The notes under the pieces: generated by a model
The model's input: the letters and a program-made list of their open reading frames with translations, nothing else
Told to the model about the DNA's origin: nothing
Database searches by the model: none
Program-made: the position numbers and the translations under genes
Source of the DNA: Octopus sinensis
Taxonomy: Eukaryota
DNA length: 64,000 bases
NCBI RefSeq assembly: GCF_006345805.1
Contig: NC_042997.1
Coordinates: forward strand, 48,050,001 to 48,114,000
Direction of reading: 5' to 3'
Shown here: in pieces, positions 8,536 through 10,693 of the stretch
Layout of the letters: each line of letters opens with the position of its first letter
Position numbering within the stretch: position 1 is the stretch's first letter

Positions 8536-8573
<38 letters not shown>

Positions 8574-9190
8574 TTGTGTCGTCTCTGTGGTGTTTCATGT
8601 TCTTGTCCATGTCTGTATTTAATTTTACTGTTTACCTATATAATCGGCGGCTACGTATCCACAATTGTCCTTATACGATAAGTATATTTTTTTCTCAAGC
8701 TTTGATACGACTCTTAATCTGTCTCTTTTTCTCTCTCTCTCCCTCCTCCCTTATTCCACTTCCGTTCTTTCCCTCTCCATCCGTCCCCCCCCCTTTCTAC
8801 GTTTCTCTATCTCTCTCACCTCCAGCCCCCTCGATCTGTCTCTTTCTTCTCCTCCCTCGTCCACCTTCTCTCCCTTTTCATCTGTCCCTTTCTCCTGTCT
8901 TTTGTTCTCACGTGACAGCTAGCCGCTGTTGAGCGCTCTTTTCGTTTTCAGCAGCCTCAGAAGCAACACGGATTTGTTCGTCTCCCCGTGGCCTTTAGGC
9001 ACAACTTCACAAGCCAGCCCCTACTCAAATCGTCCTGTCGAAAGACCCTTGTCCTACGTCCTGGTTTTGTTTTGTTGTTTATTTTTTATTTTCACCGTTA
9101 TTGTTTTTACGTTTTTGTATTCTTATTGGTGTCACGTATTCTGTATTTTTGTTTGTGTACTTCGATCGTTTTCCGTCCTTTCGTTGTATA

Positions 9191-9293
9191 CATTCGAAGC
9201 TTTGGGCTGGCCATATCGGAGCAATCTCAAGATTAATCAGCCGAAATTGCTAAGATGATCTGGTTCTTGACTGATGACTGAGGGCTTCGAATG
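9191..9293 (+). ncRNA. Non-circularly permuted hammerhead candidate, family B copy 1
   Basis: agcaaT(9220-9225)-C(9226)-tcaaga-ttaa-tcagcc-GAAA(9243)-ttgct...tcttga(9265)-CTGATGA(9271)-ctga; enclosed by cattcgaagctt/gggcttcgaatg. Confidence 0.65.
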
Positions 9294-9925
9294 TCCCGTC
9301 CTGTGGTTCTTGTGTCGTCTCTGTGGTGTTTCATGTTCTTGTCCATGTCTGTATTTAATTTTACTGTTTACCTATATAATCGGCGGCTACGTATCCACAA
9401 TTGTCCTTATACGATAAGTATATTTTTTTCTCAAGCTTGATACGACTCTTAATCTGTCTCTTTTTCTCTCTCTCTCCCTCCTCCCTTATTCCACTTCCGT
9501 TCTTTCCCTCTCCATCCGTCCCCCCCCCTTTCTACGTTTCTCTATCTCTCTCACCTCCAGCCCCCTCGATCTGTCTCTTTCTTCTCCTCCCTCGTCCACC
9601 TTCTCTCCCTTTTCATCTGTCCCTTTCTCCTGTCTTTTGTTCTCACGTGACAGCTAGCCGCTGTTGAGCGCTCTTTTCGTTTTCAGCAGCCTCAGAAGCA
9701 ACACGGATTTGTTCGTCTCCCCGTGGCCTTTAGGCACAACTTCACAAGCCAGCCCCTACTCAAATCGTCCTGTCGAAAGACCCTTGTCCTACGTCCTGGT
9801 TTTGTTTTGTTGTTTATTTTTTATTTTCACCGTTATTGTTTTTACGTTTTTGTATTCTTATTGGTGTCACGTATTCTGTATTTTTGTTTGTGTACTTCGA
9901 TCGTTTTCCGTCCTTTCGTTGTATA

Positions 9926-10028
9926 CATTCGAAGCTTTGGGCTGGCCATATCGGAGCAATCTCAAGATTAATCAGCCGAAATTGCTAAGATGATCTGGTT
10001 CTTGACTGATGACTGAGGGCTTCGAATG
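9926..10028 (+). ncRNA. Non-circularly permuted hammerhead candidate, family B copy 2
   Basis: Identical to 9191-9293 at +735; predicted cleavage after C9961. Confidence 0.65.
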
Positions 10029-10693
10029 TCCCGTCCTGTGGTTCTTGTGTCGTCTCTGTGGTGTTTCATGTTCTTGTCCATGTCTGTATTTAATTTTACT
10101 GTTTACCTATATATATATATATATATAGTAGGATAATAACAAAAATCTAAGTTTTTAGAGATGTCTTTTGGGAGGATAATTTTTATTTTAATGATACTGT
10201 TTACGATTACTCTAATGAGTTTCGAGATTTCCGATAGTCGTTTTCAAACTGAAATTTTGTGGTTTAGAAGGCTGTTTGTATAGCAAAAGACTTTTTCATA
10301 CAAGTATACAAAAATGAAATAGACAAAAAAAAAGAGATAGAAAATTAAAAAATAAAGAATATAAAAACTAATATGAAAAATAATATATAAAAAAATAATA
10401 AAAGAATACAAAAAGTAAATACAACAGCATGTGTGAAAAAGGAAGAAGAAAAAAGGAAAAGGAAAAGGTGGAAGGTAAGAAAACAAAAAGTAGTTGAAAA
10501 TGGTAGTGAGAAGAGACTAGGCTATCAAGAATAAAGTAATGGAATATTTTTAGGAGTGGCCAAGAAGGTTGTTGAGTTCCTCTCAAAAGATGACCTTTGT
10601 GAATATTTTGAGGTCATTTCATTCATTTTTCACAGTTGTTATGGTGTGCCCTTATTTAGTCTCTCTCTCTTACACACAAGCACACACATACAT

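Follow-up and report, generated by a model that had tools for sequence, protein, structure and literature searches.

Animal non-LTR retrozymes, as portrayed in the available parts of two sources (PMC7229834; Li et al., 2026, bioRxiv 10.64898/2026.07.22.740005), are non-coding, low-GC tandems that carry one type I hammerhead per unit of 150–450 bp, are dispersed in thousands and are linked to PLEs. Naiad PLEs, in the accessible text of Craig et al. (2021; PMC8557442), target (TA)n, are 5′ truncated and form partial tandems, with inverted 5′ arms; that text reports no canonical hammerhead in Naiads and leaves 'core' and 'half core' motifs, the octopus family included, unexplained. For PAc Poseidon, the available portion of Frangieh et al. 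(2024; PMC11167929) describes reverse transcription from a fixed internal RNA site and AT-rich targets. Non-circular hammerheads of types SGC and CSG were validated in vitro by Eckert et al. (2023; PMC10085705), where, in the text available, they are metatranscriptomic only, and the scheme of six permutations assumes that the core is unbreakable between A9 and G10.1. Our search of the literature outside subscription journals found no SGC, CSG or split-core hammerheads in animal genomes, and no edit-marked retrozyme arrays.

Here we describe a tandem locus in a 64,000-nt stretch of Octopus sinensis DNA (NC_042997.1, positions 48,050,001–48,114,000; the window) that we read, with a probability of roughly 0.7, as a non-LTR retrozyme whose split-core hammerhead likely cuts its transcript and whose circular unit RNA is likely read repeatedly by a borrowed reverse transcriptase (RT). 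Judged from its sequence, the element appears to work like the animal retrozymes above, being a dispersed, non-coding tandem with one hammerhead per unit, but that hammerhead is not of type I; it falls in the SGC class, but with an interrupted block C. Its units (660–800 nt across the families found here) are longer than those of the described retrozymes, and type I descriptors miss their hammerhead because it is permuted.

The tandem locus and its dispersed family

Three in-register copies begin at 8573, 9309 and 10044. In the register of the family, the locus consists, on the plus strand, of a 5′-truncated stub equal to the last 64 nt of the unit (8573–8636), a full unit 1 of 736 nt (8637–9372; non-coding, 69% pyrimidine) and a full unit 2 of 735 nt (9373–10107), lying between (TA)n target tracts, to which no strand is assigned, at 8531–8572 and 10108–10127. 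The initial annotation had reported two nearly identical non-coding units plus a terminal repeat of ∼66 bp, inserted in (TA)n. Both units and their (TA)n setting were recovered, the sole difference between the units being one T at 8701; the short extra piece is also real, but the family register makes it a 5′ stub. Contigs from other runs contain, at the corresponding position, the T missing from unit 2, which the assembly has probably dropped in error. No credible ORF was found in the tandem locus: the single ATG ORF of ≥ 50 aa (111 aa) is of low complexity and depends on the indel. The right edge of unit 2 is the fixed 3′ end of the family, at which TTTACC is followed by TATATA, and the right (TA)n flank is in phase with the unit's internal TATATA, a match that may reflect priming microhomology. 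Given the 3′ end common to the family arrays, we read the locus as having been written leftward from its right end, two full rounds and then a 64-nt stub, the left edge of the stub being the presumed stop point of reverse transcription.

Copy number and unit arrangement across the genome had been proposed at the outset as a check, and they revealed a dispersed family. The unit gave at least 146 matches among the best 39 of 1,418 candidates scored, and a 30-nt ribozyme pattern had 2,560 exact matches genome-wide (reversed control, 0). From the unit matches we picked 22 further multi-unit loci, each with its own 5′ end, which together with the window locus make a set of 23 arrays. In all 23, TTTACC followed by TATATA ends directly in (TA)n, with one array carrying an indel and stopping 4 nt short; this fixed 3′ end sits 146 nt 3′ of the predicted cut. 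The arrays begin at varied 5′ positions and span up to 4,729 nt. A non-autonomous element mobilised by PLEs would show this combination of 5′ truncation, a fixed 3′ end, partial tandems and a microsatellite target. Three subfamilies were distinguished: A1 (735 nt), A2 (∼780 nt, with an extra hairpin) and the older A3; the 735-nt subfamily has lost the junction hairpin, which is retained in most other families. In the loci examined, no RT frame belonging to the element itself was seen upstream of older A-type, D or E relatives. The unit is also covered by contigs from runs presumed to be RNA, one of them starting at 9227; as contigs are uninformative about transcript starts and abundance, we gave them no weight. 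We read the family as a young, dispersed, non-coding tandem retroelement, a non-LTR retrozyme, and this genome-wide anatomy bears out the earlier proposal of a retrozyme-like element with a rearranged ribozyme and a 735-nt cut-to-cut monomer.

Two further sequences within the unit are conserved. A short GUC-GAAA-GAC hairpin at 9028–9042, with a copy in unit 2, lies ∼190 nt 5′ of the cut and is kept in A1, A2, A3 and D; the motif CACGTGAC is conserved in A1 and A3. Both are possible RNA or promoter elements.

A predicted split-core S-G-C hammerhead

Each unit contains, in this order, AGCAAUC^UCAAGA, CAGCC-GAAA-UUGCU and UCUUGA-CUGAUGA, which provide the hammerhead core: CUGAnGA, GAAA and an NUH triplet with A15.1–U16.1, with the cut at AUC. 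The first predicted ribozyme occupies 9191–9293 (plus strand) and comprises a closing helix (9191–9203/9281–9293), stem II (9205–9209/9238–9242), a helix between stems I and II (9210–9217/9257–9264), stem III (9220–9225/9246–9251) and stem I (9227–9232/9265–9270), with GAAA at 9243–9246, CUGAUGA at 9271–9277 and the cut between 9226 and 9227. The second (9926–10028, plus strand) would cut between 9961 and 9962, 146 nt 5′ of the fixed 3′ end. C17 of the hammerhead blocks thus falls exactly on the cut sites 9226 and 9961 that the initial annotation had predicted, and the predicted plus-strand monomer from cut to cut (9227–9961, 735 nt) would be the circle.

Among the six block orders scanned in the window, S-G-C was the only one matched. 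With stem I ≥ 5 and stem III ≥ 4 the layout had three matches in the window (two in the tandem and one at 8000) and none in 60 dinucleotide shuffles, both strands included. Rfam returned no hammerhead at the gathering score nor up to E = 5, a miss that is expected from the pseudoknotted block order; minimum free energy folding did not recover the pseudoknotted ribozyme.

The first reading had recognized a rearranged ribozyme but had missed that stem II is completed from upstream: the partner of the strand 5′ of GAAA is GGCUG, located 20 nt before U16.1. Support for this pairing comes from a MAFFT alignment of 20 A- and D-type copies that was not fitted to structure. Pairing in the upstream stem II reaches 96%, and three of its pairs are double-changed, all tracing to one lineage split (A versus D) and not to many independent events. 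Stem I is 94% paired (double changes in one pair), stem III 85% (two pairs) and the helix that connects stems I and II at their far sides 83% (two pairs), while the closing helix, in which sequence 3′ of CUGAnGA pairs with the 5′ flank, has four double-changed pairs. Overall, the model collects 51 double-changed cells, versus 14 in shuffles and ≤ 9 when slid. Stems I to III thus covary, and the G10.1–C11.1 pair is present once stem II is formed from upstream. Since one strand of stem II comes from upstream and a closing helix follows CUGAnGA, the core would be opened between A9 and G10.1. A one-base insertion has been reported at this position (PMC4209133); we found no tested precedent in the literature for a break there. 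Relative to type SGC as documented in the available text of Eckert et al. (PMC10085705), the predicted ribozyme shares the S-G-C order, the core bases, three mutually crossing stems, a short S-to-G linker and the helix linking the far sides of stems I and II. It differs in the placement of block C's stem II strand, which precedes S, and in having a closing helix, with or without a hairpin, between A9 and G10.1. We also considered a standard hammerhead formed between neighbouring units and rejected it, as it needs an in-line stem II, which fails; single-copy Naiad ends bearing the identical fold also speak against it.

Six other families of this genome, two of them at subfamily level, share the split layout; Naiad and a HERO-like element are among them. 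The upstream stem II has 5 bp in families B (offset 24), D (offset 19) and E (offset 17), and 6 bp in the local Naiad (offset 20) and in the HERO-like element; family B has an alternative in-line helix of 4 bp with two G-U pairs. A family B element, unrelated to our unit in sequence, lies next to it at 7506–8288 (plus strand; predicted cut 8000) and retains an intact S-G-C ribozyme, and a second, inverted copy at 6752–7360 (minus strand) is 81% alike and has lost GAAA. Genome-wide, family B has 3,517 candidates, with partial tandems and the inverted 5′ arms that the available text of Craig et al. (PMC8557442) describes for Naiads. Family E (L265, L274, L283 and L285) is young (97–99%), with non-coding tandem units of 660–675 nt and a split ribozyme without the hairpin; one of its copies sits inside a PLE RT frame, which it breaks at TATATA. 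A loose motif search for more families yielded mostly chance matches (58 versus 24 in the control).

In the local Naiad the split ribozyme is found ∼90 nt before the TA end, 3′ of the RT frame. At one such locus, L210, where the element terminates in TA, the ribozyme lies 3′ of a 320-aa RT frame that matches RVT_1 below cut-off (E = 1e-4); a motif taken from the 3′ end of the published octopus Naiad has 263 exact matches in the genome. Reading by eye passages of the published Naiad consensus file that cover fewer than all 54 consensus sequences, we recognized the split layout in eight (three from Acropora, two from Octopus and three unassigned, one of these weak) and an intact type CSG in five (two from Nippostrongylus and three unassigned). 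The HERO-like element is coding, and its copies are 96–97% identical among the best 40 of 2,498 candidates scored; a C-terminal zinc knuckle and restriction-like motifs were read by eye, Pfam gave no match for the element, and a (TA)n end was seen in only ∼4 of 20 fetched copies.

Insertion ends, A>G marks and the template

If the RNA is cut, enzymes copying the linear product should run off at +1. We counted 5′ ends adjoining (TA)n on the minus strand in 13-nt windows and found 80 at −1 to +11, versus 19, 7 and 6 in control windows at +12 to +24, +33 to +45 and about +79 to +91; under a broader family filter, the control window −14 to −2 held 27. Family E behaved alike, with 34 loci in the cut window versus 9 and 7 in control windows. 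The A/T-rich linker at +5 to +11 can anneal to (TA)n, and this microhomology inflates the cut-window count. Ends exactly at +1 were found at ∼9 of 41 distinct loci, and at 8 of 34 in family E, so that we estimate about a fifth to a quarter of the cut-window ends to lie at +1, well above the 1–4 per position of the controls. Copies with a non-C base before the cut numbered 81; among the first 20 fetched, 16 rows (15 loci) start at +1, and three carry altered junction bases (a 4-nt insertion, a deletion and a substitution at the cut). Taken with the structural model, the ribozyme likely cuts the transcript at 9226 and 9961.

The arrays also bear on the template. Private substitutions were shared between units of one array about 10-fold more often than between arrays (72/379 versus 135/7,203 in A1; 37/80 versus 41/1,004 in A2). 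In some copies, clusters of A>G changes are confined to the ribozyme, on its strand. A>G at +13 was present in 28 copies, 15 of which (12 loci) had at least three further A>G changes in 30 nt, whereas none of the 12 control copies with T>C at +8 had a further T>C. At four loci with clean references, A>G and other changes numbered 13/0, 8/0, 16/1 and 8/0; the edited set was picked by a pattern permitting only A/G, and in older subfamilies the choice of reference may inflate A>G at +26/+27. A 5′ G was depleted next to the edited base (26/133 versus ∼54% for A, C and T) and a 3′ G was favoured, in agreement with the neighbour preferences of ADAR; RNA editing is heavy in octopods. These clusters indicate an RNA intermediate.

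In the array at C1:106.2 Mb (1.4 units), 13 edits are identical in both ribozymes, and in that at C11:68.14 Mb eight edits are identical in all three units, while edit sets differ from locus to locus. Identical edits across units within locus-private sets argue that one edited RNA unit was read more than once. Edits flank the cut on both sides in single molecules, and most sets alter GAAA, a change that would stop re-cleavage. Every one of the 75 array units has an exact cut junction, a point in favour of a covalent circle and against jumping from end to end, although three of the 20 rows above have altered junction bases. From these sequence patterns, the RNA unit read repeatedly in the two arrays was likely a circle, and reverse transcription round a circular template, as the initial annotation had suggested, is in keeping with the genome-wide anatomy. 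In the second unit only of L297, a T>C cluster lies in the pyrimidine tract, reflecting either antisense editing or assembly noise.

Could the same arrays arise without a circle? An enzyme might jump from the 5′ to the 3′ end of a cleaved linear monomer whose ends are held together by the ribozyme fold. This would also place identical edits in every unit, junction changes at the cut do occur in three of the 20 rows above, and PLE RTs are related to telomerase according to the available text of Craig et al. (PMC8557442). We consider it unlikely nonetheless: template jumps usually add bases, whereas the array junctions are exact; edits lie to either side of the cut within one and the same molecule; and other animal retrozymes form circles in vivo (available text of PMC7229834). 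A second route is that arrays derive from linear read-through multimers of a master tandem, or from DNA slippage or conversion, with cleavage incidental. In the available portion of Frangieh et al. (PMC11167929), pseudo-LTR copies of PLEs are partial tandems whose internal start is fixed, and mutating the PAc hammerhead left insertion in vitro unaffected; gene conversion, too, could make edits identical across units. Editing of a multimer unit by unit, however, would leave differences, yet the 1.4-unit array has the same 13 edits twice, edit sets are locus-specific and 5′ ends pile up at the cut, all of which renders this route improbable.

The remaining doubts concern the ribozyme and the assembly. 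An ordinary type SGC hammerhead with an in-line stem II (CUGA/UCAG), or an inactive relic, with the upstream pairing as an alternative fold, would fit the 4-bp helix that can be drawn in A1, A2 and family B, and type SGC with an in-line stem II has been validated in the work of Eckert et al. as available (PMC10085705). In our alignment, however, pairing of the in-line stem amounts to 79%, the CC ahead of GAAA stays unpaired and the G10.1–C11.1 pair is missing; the in-line stem averages 0.03 pairs versus 4.5 upstream Watson–Crick pairs in 38 A-type matches (2.0 versus 4.4 in 19 Naiad matches), and its duplex energy is −2.0 versus −6.8 kcal/mol upstream, so we give this fold only a small chance. 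That the tandem is an assembly duplication of a single unit is suggested by units identical but for one indel; against this stand the 22 other arrays with their own 5′ ends and private variants, as well as an independent contig (X20 record 10, 9223–9450) that bridges the unit junction, and the probability of such an artefact is negligible.

Proposed cycle, helper enzyme and neighbouring features

We propose the following cycle for the split-core retrozyme. A tandem copy would be transcribed and the ribozyme is predicted to cut once per unit, at the site where genomic 5′ ends cluster. Some of the 735-nt monomers may then be ligated into circles, by analogy to the RtcB ligation of other retrozymes. 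After an endonuclease nick in (TA)n, RT would start at the internal UAUAUA, 146 nt 3′ of the cut, presumably by priming there. On a linear cut monomer the enzyme would run off at the cut, leaving stubs of ∼146 nt (the pile-up); on a circle it would complete 1–6.4 rounds with a random stop, the present locus corresponding to 2.09 rounds. An editing enzyme, presumably ADAR, may sometimes act on the ribozyme first, and the edits would be copied into all units. Starting from a fixed internal RNA site and using AT-rich targets resembles PAc Poseidon, whose start site, in the available text (PMC11167929), is not homologous to the target, whereas here it coincides with the TATATA shared with the target. 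The (TA)n target, 5′ truncation and partial tandems are those of Naiads, but unlike them, as far as the text of PMC8557442 extends, the retrozyme has no ORF, and among the top candidates scored no similarity to the local Naiad 3′ end was detected.

The initial annotation had suggested a Penelope-type RT acting in trans; which enzyme is borrowed can be stated only tentatively. A Naiad lineage that was not found or is now extinct is our first, if hesitant, choice: Naiads share ribozyme and (TA)n target, but all 128 of 128 Naiad RT matches are decayed, so that Naiad cannot be shown to be the present helper. The decay of local Naiads is in line with the available text of Craig et al. (PMC8557442). 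An intact, (TA)n-targeting Neptune-like PLE is possible; at L385–L386 we found an intact young PLE with a 781-aa frame (RT and GIY-YIG), a (TA)n end and a degenerate hammerhead-like motif near its 3′ end. The HERO-like LINE is a doubtful candidate, and any other source has a slim chance. BLAST of the unit against Naiad, Neptune-like and HERO-like 3′ ends detected no similarity among the top candidates scored. A Neptune-like PLE beside one copy was discarded as a partner: it only marks where that copy inserted, does not share its 3′ end and yielded no hammerhead.

Beyond this locus, we regard the following wider reading as evenly balanced: that the split core, interrupted between A9 and G10.1 and reassembled around a four- or five-way junction, is an active seventh natural hammerhead wiring; that it is the missing Naiad ribozyme, common to a HERO-like LINE and a fleet of circular-RNA parasites; and that the genome holds a direct fossil record of round-and-round reverse transcription. 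If so, the split core would contradict an assumption on which the scheme of six hammerhead permutations explicitly rests, non-circular hammerheads would move from environmental RNA into animal chromosomes, and the apparent absence of hammerheads from Naiads would receive a testable answer. Edit sets repeated identically from unit to unit would also give in vivo support, which is rare, to the rolling-circle reverse transcription proposed for retrozymes. Loss of GAAA to ADAR editing would keep a circle closed, so host editing may influence which molecules become inserted.

Other repeats were noted around the locus and elsewhere. At 11312–11460 lies a type I-like PLE hammerhead core (CUGAUGA at 11412, GAAA ∼25 nt on), with an inverted 99-nt partner 1 kb upstream at 10198–10296. 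A 900-nt stretch at 4313–5213 matches its own reverse complement at 85%, with (TA)n at its end, and is probably a head-to-head insertion. A retrozyme-like family at L051:4590–6265 has tandem units of ∼490 nt, each with CUGAUGA and a later CGAAA, beside (TA)n. Finally, a two-copy tandem of 183 bp, 92% alike, occupies 18590–18960.
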